Positions 1 to 39,815 of a stretch of 64,000 bases of DNA are shown here, in pieces. Numbering within the stretch: position 1 is the first letter of the stretch; each line of letters begins with the position of its first letter. The notes under the pieces were generated by a model. It saw nothing but the letters and a program-made list of their open reading frames with translations. It did not search any database and was not told the DNA's origin. A program made the position numbers and the translations under genes. Source of the stretch: Vairimorpha necatrix (taxonomy: Eukaryota); NCBI GenBank assembly GCA_036630325.1, contig CP142728.1, forward strand, positions 186,001-250,000, given 5' to 3'.

Positions 1-549
1 CCACCATGAATCAATTTGATTTCTGATGTACATCTCCAAATCTTTAGACACGAAATCAAGAGCAACAAGAAATTGTTTGTATTGTTTTTCTGATGTTAAA
101 TTCTCATAATTATTAAATAAATCTACCATCTCGTAAATTGTCCTTGGTTTTATATCTCCATAAATATCTACACCATTGTCAATACAATCTGCGCCAAGAA
201 AGAAGTCTTCATAAATTTTAACAACAAAATCGTTGTAAAGTGCATCTTTAGAATCAATTCCGAAACAATTAAAAAATTTTTCATGAAAATGTTTATAAAT
301 AAGCCCGGAACTACTCAATTTATACTTATATTTTTTTGAAAATGTCTCAGAAAAAGAATGTTGATGGTGATCATATCTATTTGTAGATGGATCGTATACA
401 CCTCCAACATCATAAACAATATCGCCAGTACCTATTTCCTTCTTGTCTCTGGTTCTGATAATTTGAGAAGATGGATAAATCATAAGTAAAATTGCAGTGG
501 CTAGAATCTCATCATAATGGAATCTTTCATTGTGTGTGACAAGTTTCAT
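1..549 (-). CDS. MYG1: MYG1 (UPF0160) family exonuclease, 5' part; runs off the window start
   Basis: Manual translation from ATG 549: MKLVTHNERFHYDEILATAIL...IRTRD...IVYDVGGVYDPSTNRYDHHQHSF...KLSSSGLIYKHF, which are the characteristic MYG1 motifs. CCCCC lies immediately upstream of the ATG. Absent from the ORF track because it is truncated. Confidence 0.92.
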   Translation of the reverse strand, partial: MKLVTHNERFHYDEILATAILLMIYPSSQIIRTRDKKEIGTGDIVYDVGGVYDPSTNRYDHHQHSFSETFSKKYKYKLSSSGLIYKHFHEKFFNCFGIDSKDALYNDFVVKIYEDFFLGADCIDNGVDIYGDIKPRTIYEMVDLFNNYENLTSEKQYKQFLVALDFVSKDLEMYIRNQIDSWW

Positions 550-2149
550 GGGGGTCGAAAATTTACAGTTATTTATAAAAAAATAACGGACAAATTAAAA
601 AATTTTATTGAATAGTGAAGCTTAGTATTTTCTTTTTAGATGATCAAATATCACATGTTTTTATGATTTAATTACTGTTTACTTTAAACTCTACAATAAT
701 AAAATTACTTTCTACAGTTACATCTTCCGCTTTTTTGCCTGAAAAAATTTATACCTCGGGAAATGTATTATTCTTTGGAATAACTTACAAAATGTACACG
801 TTGTTCGTCTCATACTAAATGTCAAAAATATTGATCTAAATAAAGTTCGCTAATTAAAATTTGAGAGTTGGAATAAACAAAAAAAAGACAAAATAACGTC
901 ATTAAAAGAAGTCAAAATTATATTGCAAGACTATAACTCATTAATACGCAAAACAAGATCCTTACATTTTTGTAAAAAAATTATAATTATACTTATTTAA
1001 GTATTATGGCGATAATAGGCCATTATAGATTTATATAAACTTTATCTTTATGAGGTTAACTGCATCGATTTTATATTTTAGTTAGTATACAATTTTTTAT
1101 GATTCATAAATGTTACTGTGTAATCGGAAACACAATCTCCCAAATCTATTAGTCCCATTGATGTCTGTATAACAATTAAACATCGCTTTCGTAAAAAAAA
1201 GTTAACATGGAATCGCAAAGCGCTAGAACAAGACACTATAGAAAACTAAAGACCTAAAATTTTGCCAATGCTTTTTTAAAATATTATTATTGTCATGGGC
1301 AGACAGTAAATGTCAGCTTACATAAACACTAAGCTTTGGCGGTTAACCTCACCTTCTTATGTAGCTTTTTGACAGTGTACTGAAAGATATAAAAATTCTA
1401 TTAACGTAAATAAATTATCTTGTGGATGTTTATTATTCTAATATGTATTGGAAAAGGTTTAAATCTTGTTACATTAAGAAAAGTTTGATTGAAACTTTTT
1501 TAGTGTCAACCAACCCATTTTTTCTAAAAAATTGCCACTATAGCATTATAAGTCTGAAATATTCTGCTATTTGGTCATGAATTTTATGACTTAGACCTAC
1601 TCTGCCTTTTTTCGCAGTGAAATAAATTATTACAATTGTGCTACTAAGTAAAAATATATTCTAATTTAAGATAAAAATTTTGAAATTTAAGCCAAACATC
1701 GAATAATGTAATCGACCTTGTACATATAAGTTTCAAAGATAAATATGTGTGAGAACATTTGCATATAATACATGGATTATTGTTTCTTCGTATATTGTAA
1801 AGATTTACAATATTAATGATATTAACGATATTGCTATGAAGACTTTAATCGGACGAATCATAAACTAATAGAGGTTGAAATAACTTACCAAATCCAAGGC
1901 GTATTACATTCATTTACGTTGAGGCACGATATATCAAATAAACATTTGATATCAACAAATGATAAGAACCACAAGTTACGAAAATACTTCGATAAAAAGA
2001 GTCTTTTAAATCTAATTTCGATTTACGCTGTATTTAAAATAACCCGTAAATGGCGATTTTGTTATAATCGCATTTCTGAGTCATTCTAATATTGGTAGGT
2101 TTTAAAATCCTTTCAAGAAAAGTAAATCCAGAGTATATATCCGAATGTA

Positions 2150-2898
2150 ACTGTAGACTAGCGATCGACAGCAAGAGTCCTTATCGGACGTGTTGGACTT
2201 GAATCCGAGATTCCAAAGTTGTTACATATCTTGGCGCAAATAAAACAACAATATAATGCAATTGTTCACGATAGTTATTATTTTATTTTAATAAAACTTG
2301 TATGCATCCAGGCATAAAGTTGAGCATCATGTATAGAAACGCACCATAAGTCTAGAATATAATATTACTCTGAGGCGAGTTATCGATATGCAAAGTATGT
2401 GCTAAGTACAACTAGTTAAATAAGTGGATTGTGCATTTTTGAGATTGATCACAAAGATAATTAAAAGATTTAACGAAGTGTGCAGTAGAAAATCTCGTTG
2501 CTATCCTACAATTTTCTATAACACGGTGCAAATCTAGTTTGAAGCCGGTGGTCAGCGCAGCTTAATAGAATGTTCGGCCAGTATATGGTGGGGTAATGAG
2601 TTGACTGAGTTGCAATTAATGGTAGGGACCTCTGGACAAAAACGATTATGTCTCTTCTTTGGTTACTAAAAAATGGTTATAATTATATTTGCAGGTTTCT
2701 TTGATGCTATTTGAGTTATATGGAAAACCTCCATTCTCAGGCTCAAAGTCCAATTTATACGGCTGCCTTGCTGCTCCGTCAAGTTTCATGGGGTGAGTAA
2801 GTGGGTCTGAATCGATCATATTGTTCAATAAGAATAAGCTTAAACCATTTTGTTCCCGTATAAGAGTTATCTCGACTTTTTATTTACAAGAAAAAAAA
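2150..2898 (+). mobile_element. Old, diverged copy of the tRNA-headed SINE-like element
   Basis: Colinear matches to 17688-18482: aaacttgt..catccag..tagaaacgcacc (2294-2345), ggtggtcagcgcagc (~2547-2561), caaagtccaat..atacggc..ccttgctgc (2744-2775), and a 3' end CAAG(A)8 at ~2887-2898. The 5' boundary is approximate. Confidence 0.7.
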
Positions 2899-4122
2899 TG
2901 CGAAAAAATGAAAGCACTAATTGCGCAAAATTTTATCAGATGTGATTTAGATACAAAATTGAAGAAGAAAACTACGTATGATCTGGGCGTTTTACTTGAT
3001 TTATTTTTTTTATTTGCAGTTATGTTGTTTCAAAAAAGCAATTATATCATATGTTAATATTAAATATAGTGAATTTGTGTTGGGTTGGGTTAGGAACGCA
3101 CAAATTGATATTTATTTTTGGAATGAGCAGAGATTGCATTAATCTTGAAAAATTATACACAGTAAAAACTTACGATATATACCTACAAATTAGCAATATA
3201 AGTGATGACGTAGTTCTTTTTAATGCAAAAAATTGCGTAGGTTGCAATTTATATAATAAGTTTATACCAGATGAAAATTTTTATTGTTTTGTCGAGGTCG
3301 AAGTATCTGGTAATAAATGAATAGTACCTTTCTTTATTAACAAAGGGAACGGATATACACCGTTGGCTATAATTTTAAAACTTCTCGCAAGGTCTTTATA
3401 ATACTTCAGGGACTTGAAGTGCATACGAAAACTAAGACATTTCATATTAATTATACAATAGAGAAACATAGTCAATCGTCATTAGACTATGTAATTAACT
3501 TTTATATGATGGAAATTAAGGAAATTGGTGGTAATAATGATGTTAATGTATAATCAAAAGGACTCTAGCGTCTCTAGAATATATATTTTTTTGTAAATTG
3601 TTAAGAAAAGTGATATGTATTTTACACATAAAAATCTTACTTTTTAATGTGTTTTGTTAATGAACAAGCTCGGGTGCATACTGATACTTGCCCTGCTCAA
3701 AAAATGATGTGTGTTTTGACAGGCCTAGAGAAGCCAACATTGTTGTTGAGAAATGACAGAAAATATATAAATCCTCTGTAGTGTAAAAAAGACAAAAAAT
3801 GCCATGTTGGACCAACTATACTTTTGCAGCCAAACATATCAAAACTGCCATTCTTAACTATTCAAGATAAGAACCTTAAGGGACTGAAATTAAAAAAACC
3901 TGAAATATTAAAAATAATTAAAACTAATATAAGTATTATACTTAAACAACATGTTTAACAACCATGTAGAAACTAGTCTCACATGTTTTTTATATTGATG
4001 TGCCAATTTTGTAAAAAAAGGCATTTTAAAATTTTATAAAATATTTTAAAATTATTAAACAAGGGAGATTTCGGCCGCGCCTTTATTTTAGAATACATGT
4101 TTTTAAACCAGAAAATATTTTA

Positions 4123-8912: not shown

Positions 8913-9413
8913 TTAGTTTTTTGCTTTAGAAATAACAAATCTTATCATACCAACAACTGCAAAAAATCCTAAGATGAAATGTATGTGGTTTCTAAAATTT
9001 TCTATTTTAGTTTCTTTTTTATCCAACTTGTCTTGTTTATTTTTACCTTTTACTTTAGACTTTCTGGCTACAATCACGCCTTTTATTTTCAATTGTTCGT
9101 GTATAGGAACATCAATCTCAAGCTCAAGCAATTTTTTATTTTCATTAGCTAACATTAATTGAGGGTGTTTGGGTGCGACAACTGTTTCATTTTTTGTAGG
9201 AAAAATATCACTAGTACGTTCAAGTGATAGATAATCAAATTCATTAACCGTTTGCAATAGCATATTGGGATAGAGTTCAGGCCTTTCAGCTAACGGAGAT
9301 TGTACTATCTCAAAATTAGATTCTGTGGTATTTATATTGTTCGTATTAATGTAATTAGATAAATTACTTGCTGATAATAATTCGATTAATACTGTTAAAC
9401 ATAAAATAAACAT
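8913..9413 (-). CDS. Lineage-specific protein with signal peptide and C-terminal TM (family member with one acidic repeat)
   Basis: The start is probably ATG 9413 (MFILCLTVLIELL), preceded by CCCC, rather than the track's upstream near-cognate start. Aligns with 12567/19689 (ASNLSN..ESNFEIV..LLQTV..SLE..ENKKLLELEID..HFILGFFAVVG). Confidence 0.8.
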   Translation of the reverse strand: MFILCLTVLIELLSASNLSNYINTNNINTTESNFEIVQSPLAERPELYPNMLLQTVNEFDYLSLERTSDIFPTKNETVVAPKHPQLMLANENKKLLELEIDVPIHEQLKIKGVIVARKSKVKGKNKQDKLDKKETKIENFRNHIHFILGFFAVVGMIRFVISKAKN

Positions 9414-11327: not shown

Positions 11328-14276
11328 TTTACATCTTAATGATACATGATATTATAAATGAAATAAAAAAATAGGTCGTCCCCGATTTTTTTAAAAATCT
11401 AAGTAACTAAGGAGAAATGCAATTTCCTAATTTTTCTTTATCGTTTTTTTTATTTATATATTTAGATAAAAATTTTAATTATAAAATAATTTATTTTTTC
11501 TCTAAAGAATCTTTTTATGGAGAAAAAATGGTCCGGCTTGGGCCGGATACTTCGAAATCTGTAAGGAAAATCTTTGGGGCGTAAGTAAATAAAATATTAG
11601 CGGCGATGTTATACGTGAGTTAAAATTAACATTTACTTGAAAGGGTGAAATTGATATCTTAAAAATGTCAAAAATCGTATATTTTAGATAACCCCCTAAT
11701 AAACTACTAGCTACGATTTTTTTTTTGAATATCATCGAAGAAGCTTTATATTGTAACATTCTAGATCTTACAAAAAAATCATCTGCATATTGTAAGATTT
11801 TTTTTTATGGTTTTGAATTTTGTAGTGGCAAAAAAATATTTATATATCATATAAATATATAACATTACATTTGATAATATAGATGTAAATCTTGTGGTTA
11901 GTCTTACTTTAGGTTTTTTTTTCATACATATATGCCATCAATATGTATGTATTAATAATATTTATATAGTTAATTCAACACTAAACATGTATTTAAGTGT
12001 TTGTTTTGCAAGTGGTTTTTAAAAATAAATCAAATACCTGTTTTATTTTATCTGTCGAATATACCAAAAATTTTGCATATGTAACAACAAACTAGTTATA
12101 TCAATACAATCAACAAAAACATTACAATATTACAAACAATTGTTAGTATTGCCGTAGCCCATCAAAAACTAGCTAGCAATTTTTCGACGAATGAACATAT
12201 TTGATAAGCTTCTTAAACTATTTAAATTAATTTACAAACGAGATGATTAGAAACAAAAATTAAACATTTGACAATTATAACTACCATCTGAAATTATAAT
12301 ACGTAAACGTGATGAAAAATTTACTCCTTACGTTTTATATATTAGAAAATAAAAATCAAGCGCCTAAAAATATATATAATACCGAGAGGTAAATGATCAT
12401 TTACGTTTATACGTTTGTTATAGTTACTAAAAATTTTATTTATATGAATAAATAGTAATTGTAACCTTTTTAAAGCAATAATATGTTTAATGCACCATAC
12501 TTGATTATAACAATATAAATTGTATATTAATGGGCAAATAAAAAAAATAATAAATGTTTTTATTAACTATTTAGATCCTTTAAAAAAAGCATATCCTATT
12601 ACGGCACATGCAGCAAATACTCCCATTACGAAAGATATATTTTTATAACATCTACTCTCTTGTTTTTCGGCTAGATTAACCAATTCAACATTATTCTCGG
12701 ATTTTATTCTTGACTTCTTGTCAGAAAGTTTATTTTCGGACTCAAAGAGGGCGTGTGTATGTTCATCAAAATCTATTTCAAGCATATCAAGATTTTCGCT
12801 AGTTATTTCTAATGGAAGGTCTCTAGATTCTGCAAAAGCTATATCACTTCTAACCGATCTATCTTCAAATTCTTCGTTATCTATTTTTAGATTTTTGTCT
12901 TCCAATTCTAAAAATGCTTCTATTTTATGATCAAGTTCTTTCTCGAGTAGTCTAAAATTTTCTTCAGTCAGTTCTTGAGGAATCGGTATAATTATAAATT
13001 CTTCTTCGCTTGAATCGAAGTGATTATCGACTAATTCTAATGATGTATCTTTATTTTCCCCAACGTTTTGTAGAAGCGAATTCGAACCTTTGATGTATCT
13101 TTCCGATGATGTTTGTGGTATAATCTCTAAAAAAGACTCAACTGGATAAATGTTATTTTGATTGCTAAAATTTGATGAATCGCTAGCATTCAAATACGAT
13201 ATTATTTTTGTCAAACATAAGAGCTGCATGGGGGTATTTCCGCCTCTTTTTTTATATTAAACAATTAATTTATACAATATATATCTTTGCAATTTGCTTT
13301 GATTTTTACAAAATTTTTATACTTTATATTTCCCTCCAATTTTTTTTCTAAAAATTTTATTTTTAATATAATTCGAATAAATTTTTTTTAATTTTATATA
13401 TTTAAAGTAAAAAATGTATTTATAAATATTCCAAACAAATCAATTCTTTGATCATGTCTAATTGTTATTTAATTAGTTTGCTGTCGAAGTTAAAATTTTA
13501 TTGACATGCAGATTTTTGATGTTTAATTGTATCTATGAATAATTTTAAATAAGAAATATTATCTAAACAATATTAATTCCGAAAACTCAAAGCACCGACT
13601 GGATATTTTGACGTTTATTAGTATTTCTCTTCCTTAAAAAATTTTTTTGTTTTTTATTTTACATAAAAAAGATAATAAAAATACAGAAGTACTTACAAGT
13701 GTACAAAATAATTGTGTATTTCATTTGTAAACATAACTTTTAAAATAAAAAAAAAGTTTAAAGTAAAAACTTGACTATTATACTTTTATTTTAAAAGTTA
13801 TATTGTGATTTATCTATTTTAAATTCATATTTATAATGTTTAATTTGCCGACAAATATTTCGATAGTGTTTTTAATTTATCAATAATTGAATAAATCAAA
13901 AATTCTCAAACACGTGTCATTCTTTTCAATATAACTGTCAGGTTAACATTTATTACCCCTTTGATAACCTGATGTTCATGGTCAACGTGTTGATCAATAT
14001 AATTATATCAACAACATGAAGAATAAGATACGGGTTGCAGAATGAAGAATAATTATAATTGATTGACGAAAATTCTAAATTTTTATGTTGGTAACTTTCA
14101 ATAATATAAATCTAATTTTTTTAATTATAACTTGACAAAAATGATAAATTTTTTGTAGTTAAAGAATATCCATGTTTTTTTAAAAATAATTTTAACTCAG
14201 AAACAACTTCCAGAATAGATTTATCATTAAGAATACAATACATTTATTTTTATATTTATTTTAAAGTTTTATAGGA
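11328..14276. repeat. Segmental duplication, copy 1
   Basis: Highly similar to 18483-21595, from tttacatcttaatgatac to ...ataGGA. Includes the gene at 12567-13229. Confidence 0.92.
12567..13229 (-). CDS. Acidic secreted/membrane protein (signal peptide, two ELTEENLxLLExELD-type repeats, C-terminal TM)
   Basis: 220-aa ORF with CCCCC before the ATG. N-terminus MQLLCLTKIISYLNA, C-terminal helix ISFVMGVFAACAVIGYAFF. Paralogue of 19689-20549. Confidence 0.85.
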   Translation of the reverse strand: MQLLCLTKIISYLNASDSSNFSNQNNIYPVESFLEIIPQTSSERYIKGSNSLLQNVGENKDTSLELVDNHFDSSEEEFIIIPIPQELTEENFRLLEKELDHKIEAFLELEDKNLKIDNEEFEDRSVRSDIAFAESRDLPLEITSENLDMLEIDFDEHTHALFESENKLSDKKSRIKSENNVELVNLAEKQESRCYKNISFVMGVFAACAVIGYAFFKGSK

Positions 14277-14326
14277 TGTTATATTCTGTAATATTATTGA
14301 CCCCCAATTTATGACAAATAAAGACA
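14277..14326 (+). repeat. 5' LTR (50 bp)
   Basis: tgttatattctgtaatattattgacccccaatttatgacaaataaagaca, followed by tggcg. Confidence 0.9.
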
Positions 14327-17318
14327 TGGCGAACACAAGAAACAAAAAGTCAGCAAGTGAGGACTGTGGTCAGGTGATCAGAACGATATGGAAGGAGTTT
14401 GGTATTATTATGTATGGATTGAGATTGAGAGAAGAGAAAGGGATTGAATTGAAAGACATTTTTAGTTTGGGTTCAGAGGATTTGAGAAATTTTATGGTGG
14501 AATATGTGAGGAAGGAGGACGGAATTGAGAAAATGGAGAAAATTTTAGAAGAGATGTATAGAGTAGAGGAAGAGCAGAGAGGAGAGAAAGAGATGTCGAA
14601 GGAGATTACGGAGAGAATCGTCAGAGAGGTAAGAGGAGAGATTGAACAGCAGAGGCGTTGGGCTGTGAGAAGAAGAGTTATAAGATGTTATGAGTGTCAG
14701 AGAATGGGACATAAGAGTGATAGATGTTATTACAAATATAAAGGAAAAGAAAATAAAAAGGAGTGCAATGCAGTCTACGAAAATGATAGTAGCGCTAGTG
14801 AGCGGAGTGGATATAGGACGACAGCAGCCGCGAAGAGGCAAAAGAAGCCTACAAGTAGAGAACTTCCAAAAAGAAAAAATGAAGTTGAGGCAGCTGGAAG
14901 CGTTTTAGGACTTGAAGAACTGAAGACAAAATATAGGAAAGTGTTTAGTTCGGGAGACGAGGTTATAGAATATTGTACGATTGAGAAATGTAAGATAAAA
15001 ACACAAGAGGGTGCTAAAGTAGTGAAGAAAGGACAGTGCATACCTCAAGCATTAATGGAGGATACTGAAAATTTTATTAAAGGACTGGAAAAGAGGAAGG
15101 TAATAAGAAGTCGAATTCGGAATGGAGAAATCCAATGAGAGCGTTAAGAAATCCAGATGGCGGAATAAGGCTAGTGAGTATTTTGATGGCCTTGAATGAT
15201 TTGGTTGAAAAGGATCCTTATGAGTTAGTTAATATAAGAGACATAATTAGAAATACACAGGGTTCAAAATATTTTACGGTAATTGATTTAAAGGAAGGAT
15301 TTTATAGTATTGAGATCGACGAGGCAGATAAACATAAAACTGCATTTGAATTTAATAGAAGGGTTTATGAGTGGAATAGTATGGTTATGGGATACAAGAA
15401 CTCCCCGCAGATTTTACAAAGAATAATGAATAAATTGTTTAAAAGACACTTGGGAAAAGGAATAGAAGTGTATATGGATGATATTGTTATACATGCAGCG
15501 ACGAGAGAGAAACACGATATATCGTTAGGAGAAGCACTTAGGAAGTTGAAAGATAATAAGATGAGGATTAATATTAATAAGGTACAGTTATGCTTGAAGG
15601 AGGTAAAGCTATTGGGGGTTACACTGAATGGTTTAGAGATAACACCGTCTGAAATAAAACAAAACGAAGCGTTAGAATTCCCAGAGCCACAAAACGTGTC
15701 AGAAGTAAGGAGATTTTTAGGATTAACAGGATGGTTTAGGGGCTTTATAAAAAATTATGCGGATTTAACGGTACATTTGACCGACAGTTTGAAGGGTAAG
15801 AACGAATGGAAATGGACAGAAAATATGAAAGATGAATTTGTTAAGTTGAAAGAAAAGGTTAAGACATTGGGAAAGTTGAAGATAGTTAATTATGAAAAGG
15901 AGTTTTTATTGAGAACCGATGCGTCAAACCTAGGAATGGGTGCAGTATTAATGCAAAAGAATGACGAAGAGGATTTGGTGCCACTACAGTGGGCTTCGAA
16001 AAAGTTTACTCCCACGGAATCAAGATACGGAATAAGCGAGAAAGAGATGTATGCGGTCTACTGGGGAATCAAAAAGTTCGATTATGAATTAAGAGGTCGT
16101 AAATTTGAAGTTGAAACAGACCATAAAGCTTTGATAGAAATCAGGAGAAAGCCACAATTCGATAATAATAGGATTAATAGGTGGATAGAGAAGATTCAAG
16201 AGTTCGATTTTACAATTGAGTACATGAAGCCAGATATAATGGTAGTGGCCGATGCGTTAAGTAGAGCGCCTGTTGAAGAGACTGAGAAAGAAGAAATGAT
16301 AAAGAAAAGAACAGTGAAACAAATCGAAGGAAAAGAAAAAAAAATACAGTATATGAAGATGGAAATGAATACTGGGTCTTTGATAGTGGTATAAGAGCAG
16401 AGATACCAAAGGAGGAAAATAGGGCAAAGTTAATAATGGAATATCATGAAAATGAAGGTCATCGTAGTGTTGGAAGTGTTTATTATGCGATGAAGAAGCT
16501 TTACTATTGGTTAGGGATGAAGTCAGAGATTTATATGAGTTATTGAAGTGTGAAAGATGTCAAATTTATAATAGGAAGAAGTCGGGCGGATGTGATTTTA
16601 TTAGTACCAGTAGATATTTAGAGAAAGTAGCTTTTGATTTGATTGAATTTCGCGACGAATGTAATTACGTTTTGATTGGTGTTGATTACCATACTAGATT
16701 GATTTGGGGAGTGAGCATGAAGGAAAAAAAGGCTCAGAATGTTGCTTGATTTATAGAAAGTTTATGTAGGAACGGAAACCGATCAGAGGAAATAATAACC
16801 GATAATGGCAAGGAATTTGTTAATGGGGGGATCTTAGGATATTATGTAGAAGATTAGATATTGCTCACAGGAAGATAAGCATAGAAAGCCACCGTAGTAA
16901 TGGACGTGTAGAGAGAGTAATAGAAACATTGAGAGAAGCTATTATGAAAATGAAAGGCGATGATTTTGACGATAAGGTTATGAGAGCGATTGATATGTAT
17001 AATAATAGTTACCACAGTGGGTTAGATTGTACACCGAAAGAGGCAATTATGGATACTAGTGGAAAAGTTATGATAGAAAATGGTCCTGAAGGAAGATACA
17101 GTAAGAAGTTTGTTAAATGGAAGAGAGAAAAGTTTTACAGGAATCAGAAAGTACGAGTAGCGAAAAAAGAAAATTTGAAGGGATGTACTAAATATGAAAA
17201 AGGACGATTTATGGAGAAGGGAAAAATTTACGCGATTTGTGGAGGTGATTCTTATATTGTACGATTGGAAACAGGACGGCTGGTGAAGAAAAGACATTAT
17301 GATTTAAAGGGGGTTTGA
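14311..17318 (+). pseudogene. gag-pol, broken by frameshifts and a stop
   Basis: Gag zinc knuckle CYECQRMGHKSDRC. RT IDLKEGF..MGYKNSP..YMDD. RNase H TDAS..EKE..TDH..VADALSR. Integrase GH..CERC, AFD, TDNGKEF, SNGRVER. Frameshifts near 15115, 16345 and 16830; stop at 16747-16749. Confidence 0.9.
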
Positions 17319-17350
17319 GTAAGTATGAGACTAATCGTCTTGGAGGGGGA

Positions 17351-17399
17351 TGTTATATTCTGTAATATTATTGACCCCAATTTATGACAAATAAAGACA
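17351..17399 (+). repeat. 3' LTR (49 bp)
   Basis: Identical to the 5' LTR except C4 versus C5. Directly follows the polypurine tract. Confidence 0.9.
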
Positions 17400-17687
17400 T
17401 ATTATGTTTTTTAAGACGATTGAAATAGAAGCGTATCAATATAATTATGTTTAAGCTTTGATGAATATTTTTAATTGCAAACAAAGGCTTATGTGCTTAA
17501 GAAAAACAGTTAATTTTGTAATTGCCTTATAATTCAATGTATTCGTATGATCTTACCTTTCGATTTTAGATCCCGAAATAATTTACCTTATTTAGTCCCA
17601 TTGAAAATAAGGTTTCTACTTTACATGTAATGTCTTAAAAAATATCTTGGCTTATTGATAACACAGGTGTAAACATATAGCGCATGA

Positions 17688-18482
17688 GGTGCCCTTAGCA
17701 CAGTGCTAGAATGCTATGCTTCCATTGAGCAATGGCTGGGTTCGATTCCCAGGGGCACCAAAATTGTTTCTACTTTCTATGATGCAGTTGGAACAACTCA
17801 GATGATGAAAATGTCCACGATAATCATTAAGTTGATTCAATGAAACTTGTGTGTGTCCAGCCACAAGGGGATTAGCATCTAGTGTAGAAACGCACCTCAA
17901 GGCCAAAAAGCAGTATCGCCCTTTGGTGACTTAATGATACATAAAAGTATCTAATGGGTACGGCCTAGTTGGAGCCCATGGCTGGTGCACTCTAGAGTGG
18001 GATCCTAGAGCTAACTAAGAGACTAGACGAAGTAGGGCAATAGAAGGTCTCGTGGACCCTATCCTACATGATTCTGTAATACGGTGGCCGAAACTAGTGG
18101 GAGACTGGTGGTCAACGCAGCCCAATAAAAACGCGGGGCTGGGGATGTGGTCGTGTAAGGAGCCGTGTGTGCAATACGGATGATTGTAGGGACCTTTGAG
18201 TCAGTACGATGATGTCTCTCCTCGGGTTATAGATAACCATGCCCGTTAAGTATATCCGCTGTGAGGTCACTCTGGACGCGATTTGAGGTATAAATGGAAA
18301 GTGTTCTCCTGGAGCCAAAGTCCAATGGATACGGCGGAGCTTGCTGCACCGGCAAGTGTATGGAGGGAGTTTTAGTGAGTAAGAATCTCATAGTACCAGT
18401 TGGATGAGGATCACAGCCAAATCCCTCTGGTCCCTATGTAAGGTTTCTCCCTACCTCTTGCTTGCAAGAAAAAAAAAAAAAA
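17688..18482 (+). mobile_element. tRNA-headed SINE-like non-coding retroposon, best-preserved copy
   Basis: 73-nt tRNA-like head at 17688-17760: acceptor GGTGCCC/GGGCACC, A-box-like TAGCACAGTG, perfect T arm CTGGG-TTCGATT-CCCAG. GC-richer non-coding body ending CTTGCAAG plus poly(A) at 18469-18482. Dispersed copies occur in the window. Confidence 0.85.
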
Positions 18483-21400
18483 TTTACATCTTAATGATAC
18501 ATGATATTATAAATGAAATAAAAAAATAGGCCGTCCCCGATTTTTTTAAAAATCTAAGTAATTAAGGAGAAATGCAATTTCCTAATTTTTCTTTATCGTT
18601 TTTTTATTTATATATTTAGATAAAAATTTTATTCCAAAATAATTTATTTTTTCTCTAAAGAATCTTTTTATGGAGAAAAAATGGTCCGGCTTGGGCCGGA
18701 TACCCCGAAATCTGTAAGGAAAATCTTTAGGGCGTAAGTAAATAAAATATTAGCGGCGATGTTATACGTGAGTTAAAATTAACATTTACTTTACAGGGTG
18801 AAATTGATATCTTAAAAATGTCAAAAATCGTATATTTTAGATAACCCCCTAATAAATTACTAGCTACGATTTTTTTTGAGTATCATCGAAGAAGCTTTAT
18901 ATTGTAACATTCTAGATCTTACAAAAAAATCATCTGCATATTGTAAGATTTTTTTTTATGGTTTTGAATTTTGTAGTGGCAAAAAAATATTTATATATCA
19001 TATAAATATATAACATTACATTTGATAATATAGATGCAAATCATGGATTATAACTTATTATGGGTTTTAAAAACATAAGAGATATCAAAACGTATGTATT
19101 AATAATATTTATATAGTTACTTCAACACTAAACATGTCTTTAAGTGTTTTATTGAAATTCAATTGTATGTTTTATTTTATCTGTCAAATATACCAAAAAA
19201 TTGCATATGTAACAAAAAAACCAGTCATATAAATACAATCAACAAAAACAATACAATTTTACTTACAATTATTATTATTCCTTGTTCACATCAAAAACTA
19301 GAAAATAATCTTCCGATGAATCAACGTATGAAAAACTCCTTAAACTATTTATATTAATTTACAAAAGAGAGTATGGGTCCGTAATGAAACATTTGAAATT
19401 ATTAAATATCGTTTGTTCATTTAAATACATCACAGAAGGAAAAATAAACTCCTTACGCTCCATATATTAGAAAAAAAAATCAAGCGGCCAAAAATATATA
19501 TAATACCCGTAGGTATATGATTAATTGCGTTTATATGTTTGTCAAAATACCTAGAACTTCATTTAATCCAATAAATCATAATTGTAAACTTTTTAAAGCA
19601 ATAACATTATCAATACAGCATACTTGATCTTTACAATATAAATTGAATATTAATGAGCAAATAAAAAATATAATTAATTTTTTATTAACTAGTTATATCC
19701 TTTTAAAAAAGCATAACCTACAACAGCACATGCTGCAAATACGCCCATTCCGAAAGATATATGTTTACTACATCTACTATCTTGTTTTTCATCTATATCA
19801 ACCGATTCAAAATTATTTTCGGCTTTTATTGTTGACTGCATGTCGGAAAGTTTATTTTCAGAAACAAACGAAGTGTGTTTAAGTTCATCAAGTTCTATTT
19901 CCAGTAGTTTGAGATTTTCGCTTGTTATTTCTAACGGGAGATCTCTAGATTCTGCAAAAGCTTCTTCACTTTTCACTGGATTGTCTTCAAATTCTTTTAT
20001 ATTTATTTCGAGATTATTGTCTTCCAATTCCAAAAATGCTTCTATTTTTTGATCAAGTTCTTTCTCGAGTAGTTTAAGATTTTCTTCCGATAATTCTACT
20101 GATTCGTATATAAATTCATTTTTTCCGTCTTCTTTTGTATCGATTTGTTCGTATTTTTCTCCTGATGGTATGTTTAATGATCCACTAAGACTCTCTTCAT
20201 ATATATTGGGATTATCATCAGTTAATTCTGTTTTTGGATGAGAAAGTTCATCAAGTTCCAACTCGAGAAATCTAAGATTTTCTTCCGTAAGTTCTAGTGG
20301 TTCGTTTAGAGTTATAAATTCTTCTTCGCTTGAATCGAAGTGATTATCGACTAATTCTAATGATGTATCTTTATTTTCCCCAACGTTTTGTAGAAGCGAA
20401 TTCGAACCTTTGATGTATCTTTCCGATGATGTTTGTGGTATAATCTCTAAAAAAGACTCAACTGGATAAATGTTATTTTGATTGCTAATATTTGAAGAAT
20501 CGCTAGCATTCAAATACGATATTAAGTTTGTCAAACATAAGAGCTGCATGGGGTATTTTCCGCCTCTTTTTTATATTAAATAATTAATTTATACAATATA
20601 TATCTTTGCAATTTGCTTTGATTTTTACATAATTTATATACTTTATATTTCCCTCTAAATTTATTTCTAAAAACTTTATTTTTAATATAATTCGAATAAA
20701 TTTTTTTTAATTTTATATATTTAAAGTAAAAAATGTATTTATAAATATTTTAAACAAATTAATTCTTTGATTATGTCTAATGGTTATTTAATTAGTTTGC
20801 TGTCGAAGTTAAAATTTTATTGACATGCAGATTTTTGATGTTTAATTGAATCTATGAATCATTTTAAATAAGAAATATAATCCAAACAATATTAATTCCG
20901 AAAACCCAAAGCACCGACTGGATATTTTGACGTTTATTAGTATTTCTCTTCCTTAAAAAAATTTTTTGTTTTTTATTTTACATAAAAAAGATAATAAAAA
21001 TACAGAAGTACTTACAAGTGTACAAAAGAATTGTGTATTTCATTTTAAACACAACTTTTAACACAAATAAAAAGTTTAAAGTAAAAACTTGACAATTATA
21101 CTTTTATTTTAAATGTTATATTGCGATTTATCTATTTTAAATTCATATTTATAATGTTTAATTTGCCGACAAATATTTCGATAGTGTTTTTAATTTATCA
21201 TACATTGAATAAATCAAAAATTTTCAAACACGTGTCATTCTTTTCAATATAACTGTCAGGTTGACATTTATTACCCCTTTGATAACCTGATGTTCATGGT
21301 CAACGTGTTGATCAATAAAATTATATCAACAACATGAAGAATTAGATACGGGTTGCAGAATGAATAATGATTATAATTGATTGACGAAAATTCTAAATTT

Positions 21401-26930: not shown

Positions 26931-29240
26931 TACAAAAAACAATAATAAAAAATACTTTTATGGTAAAAAATAAAAAACTACGACAATTAAACATATAAGT
27001 TAATATACATTTCTTAGACTTGTCTAAATATTAATAATATATATTAAGTACATCTGAAGATTGTTTTTATAAGTTAAAACACCATTTCCTGTCTAAAATA
27101 TCGCGAAATCTATAATATATGAGCTAAGATTATATTTACAGGGGAGCGTATATTGAAGACAGCCCTCAGTGCAGTCATTCCATGTTTCATTTTGACATTA
27201 CTTATATCGTTTTCGGCATACATTCAAAGATGCTTGCATCCACAAATTTTAAACAGCCATCTTTTTACACGTACATAAATATGTATTAGCTGCTGCCTTA
27301 ATCGCCAATGCAAAATGGCAAGACTTTCTTCCCTGCAGCTTTTGATCATATCCTTGTTAGTAGATCCAAAGAGGCAGACTTCAAAGCTCCTTAGAAACAA
27401 TAGGCCATTTTTATGCTCCAAAGATGTTCAGGATCGAGCTTCTCGATTTTCTCTAGTAACATATAAAGCTCTAAATCAGTGCAATTGCACATGGATTATT
27501 CTTGTCCCCGATTTATACCTCAGATAATTCACATGTATTGTTTTTACCTCCTTGTCTTTTAATTCTCGACTAGCGTAGTCCAATTTCTGTTCGTGTTTTC
27601 AACCTCACCTAAAAATATTTCTTTAATCTTATTTAAAAACGCAAAAAAAAAACGGGCCATTAATGGTTAAATTCTAAATGTACAATTCTTATGTATGATT
27701 TTGTTTCAGCTCAAAATTTTTCATAATATCCTGCACTTGGTCCACGTATCTATTTCGGCTTCTGTGATATATATTATTTTAAAATAAAAGGAAATCTTTC
27801 TAACTATCACGCATTGTCTTTTCATAGAAGCAACATTCGACATTATATCACACTTGGTAACAAAATTCAAACAGTTCTCGAAATTTACATAATTTAACTG
27901 ACACAGAATATATTTTATCCTGTAAAAAAAATTGAATATGAACAGCAGAATATTATTTTTAGATCAAAAAAAGTTTCATACTTTCTATGTAATTGGTAAA
28001 TTACTGTGCTTTTATTATATTTAGATACCTTTCGTTAAGTTTATTCACATCGTTATTTGATTTTAAATTAATTAAATGATGAGGTTTCATAAAATCAATA
28101 ACCGCACACGTCATCAACGAAAGACTTTCGACAACACTTCAAACTTGAATTTTCTTTTTATGGTTTTTTAACTATTTAATTTTATATTAAAAACAGTCAA
28201 TATTTTTATCCCATGAATATATTCTGTTTATTTTGCGTGCTTGTATCAAGCACAAATAATTCAATATCTTCATTGTATAATTTATTAACAAATAATGAAA
28301 TACTCTACGAAATCTGTGAAGACACAGCCTATTATGTTAAAAATTCTGAATTTATCAATATTAACACCTCAGATGAAAAAAATCATTACGCTCTTATAAG
28401 TATAAAATCAAACCAAATCGAATTAAAAACATCTTTTAAATCATTTAAAACCATTAAATTTGATAATTTGTGGTCAATAAACAACTACTCTTTTGAGCTC
28501 TCTTTATTAATAGCCGATTTGACAACTAAGCTGTGTAACGAGAATCTTCCCGCCAAAACGGAAATATACGTCGACGTATTTTCAAATGAACAATTTCATA
28601 GAATCAACGAGTCTCGTAAAGAAAAAGAAGATTTTTTCATTACTTTACTAAAAAAGAACACGATACATTCGTTTTATAACTTAACTAGTTTACTTAAAAG
28701 AGTATCTTCACCACATTACCAAAAAATATTTTTTAGTGGTAAAGATAAAAATTTTATTTTTCCTTTACCATCATCATTTGAGATAGTCGATAACTTAATT
28801 TACAAAGAAAAAGGTCTACGTCTAATTTCTAATGAAATATTTTCTAGTAAAAATTTTAATGAAAAAATGAAAATTAGTAAATATTTTGATGGATTCGTAA
28901 TTTATATGATATTAATGATATCAAATGAAAACCAATATGCAGTAGATTTCTGTTCAGGACTTTTAAACAATGGTATGGTTTATAGCAAATGTTATAACGG
29001 GCTTATAACCAGCATTTTGATATATTTATTAAATGATCCCGGGTATGACAACTATTTCAAAACATCGTGGACATTCAAGAAAACTTTAAAAAAAGAATTA
29101 AAGAAATTGTCATTAAAATTACAAACTAAAGACGAGTTAATTAGTTATTTATTAGAAATCATGTCTAATTATGAAATATATCAGAAGAAAACATATAAAT
29201 TTGAAGAAACAGAAAATTTATCCAAAGTTTTATTGAAAAC

Positions 29241-29465
29241 TATGATATCCTAAATATCATACGATATGTTTACTAACATTTCCCTCCAAATTTGACATCT
29301 TTCCCTCCAAGTCCAATACTTTTCCCTCCGATAAATATTTAAACATTTTATCCATCGAGGGGTACGAGATGAATAAAGAACAGGAAACAAGAAGAATAAC
29401 CAATACGGTTAACAAACAAATAAATATTAATATTCTTGACATGTTCTTAAGTGGTGGATACCACA
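29241..29465 (+). repeat. 5' LTR (225 bp)
   Basis: TATGATATCC...GGATACCACA, with three internal TTTCCCTCC repeats. Confidence 0.93.
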
Positions 29466-32400
29466 AGTTAAATTTAACCAAGCTGTATCCTAAACTAAAC
29501 AAAAGGATAAAAACTGAATCTATCAAAGAAATGATCAGCTTTGAAGTCAAAATCAAAGGCCTAAAGGAGCCAATTATTAAACAATTAGAAAAAGTGAAAT
29601 ATATTGAAAAAACCAACATGTTAAAATGGTTTAAAAAATTTGAAGACATTAGCAATAAACTAGAATGGAACGATGAAGAGAATCTAATAGTACTGCAGAA
29701 TGTAATTGAAGGTTATGAAAATCAATATGGAAATGATGCTAAGACGTACGCGAAATTAAAGGAAGAGATCTTAAGTATAGCCTATCCAAAAAACCTATTC
29801 TCTTCGGCGGGTGTAAGAGTGCTAGAAATAAAACAGACTAATTATGACCTAATAGAGGAGATGATTACGGAAATTCAGACCAAATTAGAAGTGGCGTCGT
29901 ATCTAGAAAAATATACTAAGAATGAATACGAAAGAAGATTTAATGAAGTATGCCTAAATTCGTTAACAGAGGCCACTAAAGATTATGTTATGAAAGCTGG
30001 TGTAAAGAACGTCAAAGAAATTATACACTTACTAATAACTCTGGAGAAGGAACTAATCGCTAGAATACATAGTGATTTAGATCGAGCCAGAAGTACCTCG
30101 ACCGACGTTAGAGAACCAATGCTACGAAATGAAATGAATCGATGGTGTAGCTTGCATAGGTCAAGAACACATAACACTAGTGACTGCTTTAGTAGGAATA
30201 AAAGAAACGAAGATAGGAGTAGCAAAATAAAGAAAGAGGAATTTAAATCCAATAAAGATATTACGTTTTCCCATTGTAAAGTAATTTTAAAAGAAAAATC
30301 CGAGTATCTAACAGTAAAACTACCCGTGTATATTAACGGCCAGACTGTAATCGCCATATTGGATACGGGCTGCACTAAAAACCTAGTAAGCGTAGACAAG
30401 GTGAACCAACTAGGGATCACTACGAGGAAGGGCATCGGAGTAAACTTTATATTTGGTAACGGACACCAGGAGATGTCAGGAGAGATTATAGAAGAAAACA
30501 TTCGAATAAGCAGTCTAAATATTGAAATCCCAACAAGACTGCACGTAATAAGAGAACTATCGGCCGACATAATATTGGGGGTAGAATTCTTAAGTGAGAA
30601 TCAAATCATCCTCAACTTTGCCACCCAAACAATCTGTAATAACCAAAGGATTATCAATATGGTTAACGGATTACCACTTCCATACGAGGAAAACAGAGAT
30701 TTACTATTGCAAAGATGTTTTGCCATAAACGAAAAGAATGTCAGCACCGAGAACACCTCGAAGATATTAAAATACATGAAAAACAATGAGTTATTCAAAG
30801 AGATGAAAATCAAGAGAATTGCATTTGAACTGAGCAACAAAGGGAACTTAAGACTGACAAATAAAAAATACACGATCCCACCCAAGTACCTTGATGCAAC
30901 TAAGCAGGAGATAAAAAGACTGTTGAAAGAGAAAATTATCAAATACAGTGAAAGTAAGTACAGCAGCCCCGCATTCGTCATTGCCAAGAAAAATAACGAA
31001 ATAAGGCTAGTAGTAGATTATAGGGAATTGAACCAAAATATAGTTGATGAAATGGATTTACTACCTAAGATAAAAGATATGATGAACGAGGTCAAGGGTG
31101 CAAAGTATTTCACTAAAATCGACCTAAAAAACGGATTCAATCAGGTACCCATAGAAGAAAATTCCATGAGTCTGACCAGTTTTAAAATTTTAGGAAATGT
31201 TTACAAATATACAAGAATCCCATTCGGCATTAAATCAGGCCCCAAACTATTTCAAAGAACGATAAATAAAATATTGGCAGAGATACCCAATGTAGTAGTA
31301 TATATTGATGATATTTTAATATACACCTTAACCAAAGAGGAACATAATACGATTTTAAACCAAGTACTAGACAGATTATCCAGTTATAAAATAAAAATTA
31401 ACTTCGAAAAGAGTATATTTGCGGTTAAAGAAGTCGAGATGTTAGGCATGATTATAAATGAAAAGGAAATAAAGCCTAATGTAAGTAATATAGGTAAAGT
31501 ATTAGTAAAGTTAGATATAACAAAACGACGGGAGCTACAGAAAATCCTAGGAATCTTAAACTGGTACAGAGAGTTTGTGCCCAATTTTAGTGCCAAAGTC
31601 ATGAATTTAACTGATAAACTGAAGGGAGCTGAGCAAAAGAAAGAATTAACAGAGAGCGAGAAGCAAAATATACGGGCCTTAGTCAATGAAATTAAGGAAA
31701 ATGGAAAACTGGTGGCCCCGAAATATGAGGAAGAATTTTGTCTACAAACTGATGCATCGGATAAAGCCATGGGAGCGGTATTGTTTCAACAACACGGATG
31801 CATAGGTTATTACAGCAAGAAATTTACCGACGCCGAAGCAAACTACACAATTGTCGAAAAAGAAATGTTCGCAATATTGCAAAGCCTAATATTCTTTAAA
31901 GGAATTGTAATGGGATACCCAGTTAAAGTTATGTGCGATAACAGAAATTGCCTATTTGATACCCAAAATAATAATAGCAGAATGATAAGATGGAAGATGA
32001 TGCTCAATGAATATAATCTTACACTAGAAGGCATAGAGGGAAAAAGAAATGTAATTGCGGATCATCTATCGCGGTCGCCCACAGAAGAAATATTACAAAT
32101 TAAAACAGACAATGAAAAAGAAGAAAAGGAAGTATTTAAGGAAACCTTAGCTGTTCCGGGAACTAAGAAAAACGACAAACTACACATAAAGTCTAGTGAA
32201 AGTGAAAATTTTATTAAAAGCATGCATTTAAAAAGCAAGCATGCAGGAATGTTTGTTTTATATTATAACTTGAAAGATTATTACTATATATACAAAATGA
32301 AGGAAATTATTAAAAAGGTAGTCAGCAGTTGTCAAAACTGTAAACATAACAAAAAATTTAGCTATCACAAACTCGAAGATAAAATGGGAATCACAGCCAA

Positions 32401-33103
32401 AACACCGTTTGAAAAAATATGTTCAGATATTTACGGTCCATCAAGGATAAACAATACAAAATGGTTCATATTGACGATCATCGACGTTTATACCAGGTAT
32501 ACAAAGGTGTATAAATTAAGAGAAATCACAAACAATAGAGTGGTCGAGTGTTTTGAAAAATGGTGCAGGGAGTTCCATTATCCTAAAACTATAATTACAG
32601 ACAACGGAACACAGTATACAAGTAATCTAGTTAAAAACTTTGCAAACGAAAATAATATAAATCTCATACATGTACCAAAATACCACCCACAGAGCAATGG
32701 CATCTGTGAGAGAACAAATACCACTATATCGGAAATAATCAGGTTATACAAATCAGAGCCGCTTGAGAAAATACTAGAAAACATCGAAATTAGATTAAAT
32801 AAAAACTTCAGAAGATCAATAGGCTGCGCCCCTGAAGAGCTAGTCACGGGGAATAATCAATTTGACCCTAAAGGAAGAGTGCGGCTTAAGAAGATAACAA
32901 AGACCGCGAAGAAGAATCTGGAGAATAAAAAGATCAAGAAAGTAAAAATAGGAGATAAGGTGTATGTAAGAAACTTTCTAGCTAAGAAGTGGGAAAAGGC
33001 GTTCACGGGACCATACCTAGTAGAATCAGTTGGTAAGAATGGCAGGTGGTTCAAAGTCAAAGGAGTCTACGAGTGGATTCACATTGCCGACACCAAACTC
33101 TAA
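29369..33103 (+). CDS. Gag-Pol polyprotein, single uninterrupted ORF
   Basis: Knuckle CSLHRSRTHNTSDC, protease LDTG, RT IDLKNGF/PFG/YIDD, RNase H TDAS/ADHLSR, integrase H-x4-H/CxxC, SD..TDNGTQY..SNGICER, GPY motif. Confidence 0.96.
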   Translation: MNKEQETRRITNTVNKQININILDMFLSGGYHKLNLTKLYPKLNKRIKTESIKEMISFEVKIKGLKEPIIKQLEKVKYIEKTNMLKWFKKFEDISNKLEWNDEENLIVLQNVIEGYENQYGNDAKTYAKLKEEILSIAYPKNLFSSAGVRVLEIKQTNYDLIEEMITEIQTKLEVASYLEKYTKNEYERRFNEVCLNSLTEATKDYVMKAGVKNVKEIIHLLITLEKELIARIHSDLDRARSTSTDVREPMLRNEMNRWCSLHRSRTHNTSDCFSRNKRNEDRSSKIKKEEFKSNKDITFSHCKVILKEKSEYLTVKLPVYINGQTVIAILDTGCTKNLVSVDKVNQLGITTRKGIGVNFIFGNGHQEMSGEIIEENIRISSLNIEIPTRLHVIRELSADIILGVEFLSENQIILNFATQTICNNQRIINMVNGLPLPYEENRDLLLQRCFAINEKNVSTENTSKILKYMKNNELFKEMKIKRIAFELSNKGNLRLTNKKYTIPPKYLDATKQEIKRLLKEKIIKYSESKYSSPAFVIAKKNNEIRLVVDYRELNQNIVDEMDLLPKIKDMMNEVKGAKYFTKIDLKNGFNQVPIEENSMSLTSFKILGNVYKYTRIPFGIKSGPKLFQRTINKILAEIPNVVVYIDDILIYTLTKEEHNTILNQVLDRLSSYKIKINFEKSIFAVKEVEMLGMIINEKEIKPNVSNIGKVLVKLDITKRRELQKILGILNWYREFVPNFSAKVMNLTDKLKGAEQKKELTESEKQNIRALVNEIKENGKLVAPKYEEEFCLQTDASDKAMGAVLFQQHGCIGYYSKKFTDAEANYTIVEKEMFAILQSLIFFKGIVMGYPVKVMCDNRNCLFDTQNNNSRMIRWKMMLNEYNLTLEGIEGKRNVIADHLSRSPTEEILQIKTDNEKEEKEVFKETLAVPGTKKNDKLHIKSSESENFIKSMHLKSKHAGMFVLYYNLKDYYYIYKMKEIIKKVVSSCQNCKHNKKFSYHKLEDKMGITAKTPFEKICSDIYGPSRINNTKWFILTIIDVYTRYTKVYKLREITNNRVVECFEKWCREFHYPKTIITDNGTQYTSNLVKNFANENNINLIHVPKYHPQSNGICERTNTTISEIIRLYKSEPLEKILENIEIRLNKNFRRSIGCAPEELVTGNNQFDPKGRVRLKKITKTAKKNLENKKIKKVKIGDKVYVRNFLAKKWEKAFTGPYLVESVGKNGRWFKVKGVYEWIHIADTKL

Positions 33104-33122
33104 AATGATGGGAGAGGCAGAT

Positions 33123-33347
33123 TATGATATCCTAAATATCATACGATATGTTTACTAACATTTCCCTCCAAATTTGACATCTTTCCCTCCAAGTCCAATA
33201 CTTTTCCCTCCGATAAATATTTAAACATTTTATCCATCGAGGGGTACGAGATGAATAAAGAACAGGAAACAAGAAGAATAACCAATACGGTTAACAAACA
33301 AATAAATATTAATATTCTTGACATGTTCTTAAGTGGTGGATACCACA
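33123..33347 (+). repeat. 3' LTR (225 bp)
   Basis: Matches the 5' LTR. Confidence 0.93.
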
Positions 33348-34150
33348 AAAACAATTATAAAAAATTTTAATCTTACTTGTATTAAAGACATACAGGCACT
33401 TATAGACAATGAGTTTAGTTCTAAAACTTTTTGTAATCAGAAACTTGTAGAATATTTGGCATTATTACTTGATTCTGTCCATAGCAGATATAAATTTTAT
33501 TTTAAGTTGTGCTCCGAGATTGACAGAAAAATTTCTTTTGATGAGTTGATGGCTGAGTCTGGTCATTTGTTATTAAAATATGATAAAAAAATGTATCGTA
33601 GTGATGTGGCTTTTATAAATGAAAAAATGAAGAAATTGACATACACGGAAAGTAATAAAATTGAAAGTGAAAGAAGTTTAATGGAATTTCTTAATGAAGT
33701 TTATAAAAATGAATAAAAATTTTATCTATTTATATAAAAAACATTTGATAATTGATTACTTATAGAAATATACATCAAAAAACTTTTAAATCGATATTGA
33801 ATCCTTAATTGAGTTCTATAATTATTGCAAATACATATAGAAATATACATTAAAAAACTTACAAATCGATATTAAATTTTTATATGAGTTCCATACTTAG
33901 TGCAAATACATATATAAATACTATACTAATATTGAAAAATTTTACTCAAATTTTTTTTAGACCTTTGCCGACTAGATCTAACAAAATAGCTAATTTAAGA
34001 GTTAATTTTAAAAGTTAATTTATACATAATTGATTAAATGTATTATTAAAAATCTATTTTTTAATTTTATACTTTTTTATTCATTTTTTAGCACATATAT
34101 TCTTCTTTATTGTTTATTGTTTTAATAATTTTTACACCCCATACAAGTTT

Positions 34151-39744: not shown

Positions 39745-39815
39745 TGCGAATAGCGGGAGTCGAACCCGCACCACCAGATTATGAGACTGATACGCTACCG
39801 CTACGCCATACTCGC
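39745..39815 (-). tRNA. tRNA-Met(CAT), elongator type
   Basis: Acceptor GCGAGTA/TATTCGC-A, anticodon loop CTCATAA, T arm GCGGG-TTCGACT-CCCGC, downstream T-run terminator. Confidence 0.93.

Follow-up and report, generated by a model that had tools for sequence, protein, structure and literature searches.

The long terminal repeats (LTRs) of the Saccharomyces cerevisiae retrotransposons Ty1 and Ty3 are about 330–340 bp long. Among elements with short LTRs, those of Mag measure about 77 bp, those of SMART about 85 bp and those of TRIM 100–250 bp, all with a primer-binding site (PBS) and a polypurine tract (PPT); Mag has a protease and a full Gag, SMART and TRIM code for nothing, and TRIM, SMART and LARD elements are defined by having no intact enzyme-coding frame. 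Here we describe a retrotransposon of 3,123 bp from the microsporidian Vairimorpha necatrix, located at 14277–17399 of a 64,000-nt window (the whole stretch analysed, positions 186,001–250,000 of contig CP142728.1 in assembly GCA_036630325.1) and bounded by repeats that differ by a single C. It almost certainly belongs to a lineage of elements 3.07–3.22 kb long that have LTRs of 38–50 bp, a PBS for tRNA-Arg or tRNA-Pro, a PPT, 5-bp target duplications and a single open reading frame (ORF) devoid of a protease, and whose sister families have moved recently; the LTRs are shorter than those of Mag, SMART and TRIM, and reverse transcriptase (RT) and integrase are retained. The genome that harbours it comprises 15.0 Mb in 12 contigs, with about 25–30 % GC and short, densely packed genes; a protein labelled V. 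necatrix in its source record matches it at 100 %, as befits a host of the Vairimorpha/Nosema type.

Like Ty1 and Ty3, the members of this lineage have LTRs, a PPT and a tRNA primer, their domain order is that of Ty3, and the PBS lies in coding sequence as it does in the GAG gene of Ty1; they are unlike Ty1 and Ty3 in that the latter are 5.4–5.9 kb long, produce Gag and Gag-Pol by frameshifting, mature with a protease of their own, prime from initiator tRNA-Met and carry a nuclear localization signal on integrase (PMC4974528, in part). Microsporidian Ty3/gypsy groups with a single polyprotein have been described (PMC4202319, in part), and with these the lineage shares the single ORF, the RT–RNase H–integrase order and an ORF start within the 5′ LTR. 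By contrast with the lineage, 46 of the 50 complete Anncaliia elements have LTRs of 105–272 bp and are mostly 3.6–4.3 kb long (counted from the table of PMC4202319, in part). The same source lists 'retro L' of Anncaliia algerae, a complete Gypsy element of 3,127 bp with 50-bp LTRs and an ORF at 32–3049 (in its supplement), and 'retro S', with a 45-bp LTR. In its first ~600 bases, inspected by eye, retro L resembles the lineage in the LTR start, the CCC-ATG arrangement, the junction ATG, the short Gag and the CCHC motif, and differs from the window element in that AATAAA stands before the CCC and not after the ATG. A second element in our own window (~29241–33348) likewise starts its ORF in the 5′ LTR; it has identical LTRs of ~226 bp, a protease and a longer Gag.

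The portions of PMC4202319 available to us make no remark on the size of the retro L LTRs, and 'protease' does not occur in its main text. In the literature searched, which was mostly open-access and lay outside Repbase and bioRxiv supplements, there was no description of 38–50-bp LTRs or of protease loss in microsporidian elements, and PMC7313128, PMC13174016, PMC3286476 and PMC13149256, each in part, hold nothing on these elements. What appears to be new is the combination of 38–50-bp LTRs, no protease and a cut-down Gag, one such member having been tabulated without comment in 2014. The RT–RNase H–integrase frames are open in six families, which sets the lineage apart from TRIM, SMART and LARD elements. 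It shows the direct repeats, 5-bp duplications, PBS and PPT, enzyme order and CCHC motif of Ty3/gypsy elements; a protease of its own is missing, and we therefore file it as Ty3/gypsy-derived and not as a canonical autonomous member.

Terminal repeats and mobility

The original prediction held that the only direct repeats bounding the element are 50 and 49 bp long, with TG...CA ends, TGGCG after the 5′ copy and a polypurine tract before the 3′ copy. All of these are present, and no longer bounding repeat was seen among the families compared. The family of the window element (family A) comprises nine two-ended copies and one with the 5′ part only, mutually 93.5–99.1 % identical; genome counts here and below were obtained by pattern and protein searches and should be read as minima. 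All 19 family-A LTRs found are 49–50 bp long and lie at element ends, so that none of the nine two-ended copies carries the longer LTRs that would have pointed to an internally deleted derivative. The other eight two-ended copies represent five insertion sites, four with exact 5-bp duplications (CCTAA, TTAAA, TATTA and TTTTC) and a fifth with one mismatch; copies with the same termini and flanking duplications, for which the original prediction had asked, thus exist. A reversed-pattern control for the LTR search gave no matches. Complementarity of the PBS to the host tRNA-Arg(TCG), found among 64 tRNA calls, extends over 14 of 14 nt, while the runner-up among 995 TGG sites in the window reaches only 10 nt. 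Since the same ends are found again at further insertion sites, flanked there by 5-bp duplications, and the reversed pattern has no matches, they are not a product of chance, and the target duplications, the solo LTRs described below and the abutting PBS and PPT establish the 50- and 49-bp repeats as the true LTRs.

Six further families (B–G) of the same build are present in the genome, with element lengths of 3,066–3,219 bp, LTRs of 48–49 bp in B–F and 38 bp in G, and a PBS that matches tRNA-Pro(AGG) or tRNA-Arg(TCG) over 13–14 nt. At 48 whole-element loci of these families, a tally that dropped three family-G loci by pattern, exact 5-bp target duplications were found at 44 and identical LTR pairs at 38; family G, counted separately, has exact duplications at 14 of 16 loci. 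The 54 family-C LTR matches resolve into 27 pairs. Among 30 of the 68 family-B LTR matches there are four solo LTRs, two with exact duplications and two with one mismatch; solo LTRs, for which the original prediction had proposed a search, are thus present, at 48–49 bp. Private variants are often common to both LTRs of one copy (e.g. L080/81 and L088/89), as expected from reverse transcription. Contigs from four public runs, belonging to four studies, cover a family-C element at ~97 % identity, and in three of the four runs different flanks start at the same LTR boundary. The sister families have been recently mobile.

Two of the families depart somewhat from this pattern. The 49-bp LTRs of family F (L200:1150-1198) end in TG...TA and not in CA; five of its six copies have identical LTR pairs, its frames are open over 1,017 codons, and its closest relative is a V. 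ceranae cluster (P0006). The 38-bp LTR of family G (L222:1464-1501) includes, around the CCC, a perfect inverted repeat, AGGGTT/AACCCT, and the ORF stops 12 nt inside the 3′ LTR. By raw count, 37 of the 44 target duplications of families B–G have A at position 5 and 27 have T at position 1, which may reflect a weak T-W-W-W-A preference. One family-A copy (G000:C10:402476-411655) has an exact target duplication and is split by several nested insertions, one of them protease-bearing (L012). Internally deleted family-C copies of ~1.6 kb (G000:C1:535187-536847) and ~1.1 kb (C8:991644-992758) keep both LTRs, and since that on C1 has an exact target duplication, deleted forms may be mobilized in trans.

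The polyprotein and its relatives

Intact copies encode one chain of ~1,010 aa (about 1,006–1,024 aa, with open frames of 1,006–1,047 codons in six families). It begins with ~125 aa of Gag, to which a CCHC knuckle and a charged linker are joined; RT, RNase H and integrase make up the rest. HHCC and rve integrase domains were found on intact ORFs of sister families, and families B, C and G each have complete catalytic motifs for RT, RNase H and integrase. Judged by the conservation of RT and integrase, the elements are not passive passengers. The loss of the protease and of most of Gag had no place in the original prediction. No Pfam match to an aspartic protease was obtained in two intact ORFs of the lineage, although three protease models exceed the cut-off in the neighbouring element at 29241–33348. 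Scored with a profile built from 17 proteases, none of 49 lineage proteins, fragments included, exceeded 1.2 bits, whereas the sister protein P0044 reached 32 bits and 41 of 70 outgroup proteins reached 15 bits or more, eight of the 70 being themselves in the profile. The linker that stands at the place of the protease is 27–76 aa long in 33 of 36 proteins and 105–106 aa in two, the remaining one (P0018) being mis-anchored. It is modelled at low confidence (residues 145–197 of the chain), the RNase H–integrase junction is modelled as a helix, and at neither junction did inspection by eye reveal a common hydrophobic cleavage-like motif. The Gag part is predicted to form three short helices and one of 50 residues, with a helical domain of ~70 aa (pLDDT 89.6); for the fold of this N-terminal domain Foldseek returned no match at E ≤ 0.001, there was nothing at Z ≥ 8, and Atlas hits stayed below 0.8.

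The top 48 of 118 homologues form a distinct group, whose named members come from Nosema granulosis, V. necatrix, Enteropsectra breve and Pseudoloma neurophilia, with V. ceranae and Conglomerata obtusa represented in two-member clusters; one homologue labelled Clostridium is probably contamination. In 24 of these 48 the longest contig measures 2,990–3,300 bases, a weak sign of equal element size, and 16 of 31 full N-termini have the form M-x(2-5)-[DYHNT]-M-[AG], a trace of the LTR/PBS junction. In trees from quick searches, with SH-aLRT support only, a core clade of 44 rows is recovered (SH-aLRT 99), and family G is separate from A–F. Wider sampling gave a protease-negative clade of 23 rows (SH-aLRT 97), of whose five sisters four are protease-positive and the fifth is short. 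By this reading of the trees the protease-negative clade is an old one, with members in several microsporidian genera. The RT of the lineage nests among protease-bearing relatives, some source-labelled Tf2, 297 or Ty3-G, in trees drawn without curated references of other superfamilies, and it may group with Ty3/gypsy elements.

An MHR-like motif N-terminal to the knuckle was found in P0044 and P0048, and by eye in P0167, but not in the core members. P0167 is basal in the 23-row clade and has a longer Gag; P0048, which also keeps a longer Gag, forms with P0177 a second protease-negative pair. P0167 and P0048 may be intermediates or witness a second loss, and the pattern suggests that loss of the protease, which perhaps occurred twice, preceded that of the second capsid lobe.

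LTR layout, replication and alternative explanations

As originally predicted, each LTR contains CCCC(C)-AATTT-ATG and AATAAA, and the ATG at 14311 lies inside the LTR with the PBS in coding sequence: it starts a frame of 275 aa in the window copy that runs through the PBS. The second ATG of the element is made up of the last LTR base and the PBS, and the LTR ATG is in frame with this junction ATG at three spacings (3, 5 and 6 codons) in the lineage. CCC stands 3–11 nt 5′ of the ATG in the LTRs of all seven families (3–5 nt in six, 11 nt in G), an arrangement with a shuffle P of 0.005–0.022. In host-like ORFs CCC lies 0–9 nt 5′ of the ATG in 24 of 52 and at 10–19 nt in six, with none or one of the 52 in each of the bins at 20–49 nt, and microsporidian 5′ untranslated regions of less than 7 nt with the same motif have been reported (PMC2803860, in part). 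The proposed likeness of the LTR to a minimal host promoter is supported; the reading of AATAAA as a poly(A) signal is doubtful. A[AT]TAAA occurs in 165 of 472 intergenic 49-mers and in 15–27 % of shuffled LTRs, and the distance from hexamer to LTR end is 4 nt in A–E, 24 in F and 9 in G, with the hexamer at LTR position 20 in both F and G. We rejected AATAAA as a proven poly(A) signal for these reasons, its frequency by chance and its shifting position.

Cleavage ~20 nt 3′ of the hexamer, a general rule (PMC2803860, in part), would fall outside the LTR in A–E, which need not block replication because the strand jump needs only shared bases. On the family-C copy the contigs of the four public runs showed no pile-up of transcript starts or ends and no poly(A) tail among 18 of 19 loose contig ends; a contig start at LTR position 20 was discarded as a transcription start, being equal to the 30-base overlap of a 31-mer assembly. 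Rfam had no match in window 13000–19000, and RNA structure at the LTR ends did not go beyond that of shuffles (z 1.05, −0.65 and 0.14). Nor is an ATG within the LTR special to these elements: of the 50 complete Anncaliia elements, 43 begin their ORF there. It had also been proposed that U3-R-U5 may have shrunk to match host promoter compaction. The match between tiny LTR and host promoter is supported, but host compaction as the force behind short LTRs was rejected on account of the neighbour with 226-bp LTRs in the same window; the shrinkage belongs to one lineage and is no property of the host, and a compact promoter permits a tiny LTR without causing it.

We think it likely that the LTR is laid out as a U3 promoter of ~30 bp, a start just before the ATG, a transcribed repeat of ~16–21 nt and RNA 3′ ends at or past the LTR. 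The first ~30 bp would then combine the integrase end with a host-type T-rich/CCC promoter, transcription would begin a few bases 5′ of the LTR ATG, and a minus-strand strong-stop DNA of only ~20 nt would make its jump by annealing to the identical bases of the 3′ LTR. The ~1,010-aa protein may stay uncut, bind its own RNA through the CCHC knuckle and, still uncut, copy and integrate that RNA, with nuclear entry mediated by a basic motif on the linker that has taken the place of the protease. For this model of an uncut chain we put the chances at even; it draws on the variable charged linkers, the lack of a shared cleavage-like motif, the helical junction and the import-like motif, KRxK/KR[RK], which 23 of the 36 linkers contain, against a mean of 9.3 and a maximum of 18 after shuffling. 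Several points weigh against it. The basic pattern was picked after the sequences had been viewed, and related rows cannot count as independent; profile searches are poor at finding proteases (PMC3248453, in part), and precomputed Pfam overlooked that of P0044; the assignment of a capsid lobe is weak, those of Arc, Ty3 and RSV coming up at Z 5.0–5.9 amid unrelated helical hits, a hint only; and processing is required for reverse transcription and integration in Ty1 and Ty3 (PMC4974528, in part).

That same requirement favours a rival in which the elements supply their own RT and integrase but depend on full-size gypsy elements of the same genome, whose protease would cut the chain and whose capsid might package it. 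At least 150 retropepsin matches were counted in the genome, many of them within long open frames, so that a protease is at hand in trans; a protease-bearing element with identical 226-bp LTRs lies in the same window; and an N-K-x-x-hydrophobic stretch after the knuckle in several linkers could be a relic cleavage site. Set against this, the linkers range from 27 to ~105 aa without a site shared by eye, core members lack the MHR-like motif, so that joining a helper's two-lobe lattice looks hard, and the protease-negative clade is old and present in several microsporidian genera. We regard such help as unlikely, though as a contender to be reckoned with. A host protease other than a retropepsin acting in the charged linkers would suit their flexible, K/R-rich character and the absence of an element-borne protease, yet no conserved site was seen by eye and the basic clusters fit a nuclear-import signal equally well, and this we find improbable. 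Alternatively, the short LTRs and missing protease might be damage left by deletions in immobile remnants of a larger element. The window copy, broken, apparently recombinant and lacking a target duplication, lends itself to this view, as do the breaks in all eight family-A copies aligned. For the lineage the view is refuted by the target duplications of the sister families and the family-B solo LTRs, which are 48–49 bp long and have duplications; with dozens of dispersed copies, six other families, identical LTRs, open frames of ~1,010 aa and the same build in Anncaliia besides, hardly any weight is left to it. The best explanation as a whole, with odds slightly better than even, is that the window element is a decayed copy of a miniaturized Ty3/gypsy-derived lineage with the LTR layout and uncut chain set out above. 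More tentatively, and at somewhat less than even odds, these may be self-sufficient elements of ~3.1 kb that replicate without a protease or conventional capsid and by way of a strong-stop DNA of ~20 bases from a 38–49-bp LTR; a single uncut Gag–RT–RNase H–integrase chain would work on its own RNA, and the LTR would amount to hardly more than a pair of integrase ends enclosing a host promoter.

The window copy, its surroundings and implications

The features of the window copy are collected in Table 1. Compared with the closest intact homologue, it carries four frameshifts and a single in-frame stop in its coding region. The sequence flanking it on the 5′ side bears no relation to the 5′ flanks of the two copies that share its 3′ flank, one of them C3:545k, and both of its LTRs bear variants of the C11 copy; it is on these grounds probably a decayed recombinant between two copies. 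As the coding regions of all eight family-A copies aligned are broken, family A looks extinct.

Table 1. Positions in the window of the features of the retrotransposon and its flanks
Feature	Position	Strand	Remarks
5′ flank TAGGA	14272..14276	+	Mismatch to 3′ flank TATTA; no target duplication in window copy
5′ LTR	14277..14326	+	50 bp, TG...CA
C run	14301..14305	+	After A/T-rich stretch, 5 nt 5′ of ATG; likely core promoter
First ATG	14311..14313	+	Within LTR; in frame with second ATG
Mini-Gag	14311..14685	+	Small helical domain and one long helix, as modelled for an intact protein of a sister family; possibly a single capsid lobe
AATAAA	14317..14322	+	Doubles as Asn-Lys codons; function uncertain
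PBS	14327..14340	+	Adjoins LTR without spacer; coding; 14/14 nt complementary to tRNA-Arg(TCG) 3′ end
CCHC zinc knuckle	14686..14727	+	From sequence; near-invariant across relatives; zf-CCHC below cut-off in sister families
Charged linker, ~58 aa	14728..14907	+	At protease place, no protease; basic KRQKK cluster
RT and RNase H	14908..16270	+	Frameshift near 15110-15120
Integrase region	16271..17318	+	Frameshifts near 16335, 16530 and 16835; one in-frame stop
Small AGAC-N4-5-GTCT stem	17327..17341	+	Just 5′ of PPT; sequence kept in 7/7 families
PPT GGAGGGGGA	17342..17350	+	Adjoins 3′ LTR
3′ LTR	17351..17399	+	49 bp, TG...CA
3′ flank	17400..18477	+	96 % identity over 1,078 bp to 3′ flank of copy G000:C3:545k (target site TATTA)

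The neighbouring element at ~29241–33348 has LTRs that apparently run TA...CA, a target site AAAAC and an ORF of 1,244 aa, with no TGG-type PBS adjoining the LTR; it lies at the 3′ end of an ORF (28213–29253) whose stop codon is inside the LTR. Three related minus-strand ORFs (8913–9413, 12567–13229 and 19689–20549) encode proteins with a hydrophobic N-terminus, acidic repeats and a hydrophobic C-terminal tail, and the latter two are within a duplication, spaced ~7.1 kb, that flanks the retrotransposon. There are two tRNA-Met(CAT) genes, one at 39745–39815 and the other at 17688–17760, 288 bp 3′ of the 3′ LTR and within the duplicated 3′ flank. An ORF of 912 aa at 39992–42730 resembles, from motifs judged by eye, a telomerase reverse transcriptase.

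With family G the lower bound for an LTR moves to 38 bp. LTRharvest has a default minimum of 100 bp (PMC2253517, in part), as the original prediction had said of the common LTR finders, and dozens of young copies in a 15-Mb genome fall below it; the expectation that such families escape annotation is correct for structure-based methods, though not for homology-based searches, which find them, and structure-based counts and insertion dating would be biased in microsporidia. The lineage also brings into question two rules derived from Ty1, Ty3 and retroviruses, that copying needs cleavage of the polyprotein by the element's own protease and that it needs a two-lobed capsid. The relatives suggest a stepwise loss, of the protease and then of the second capsid lobe, so that the question lends itself to a comparative test.

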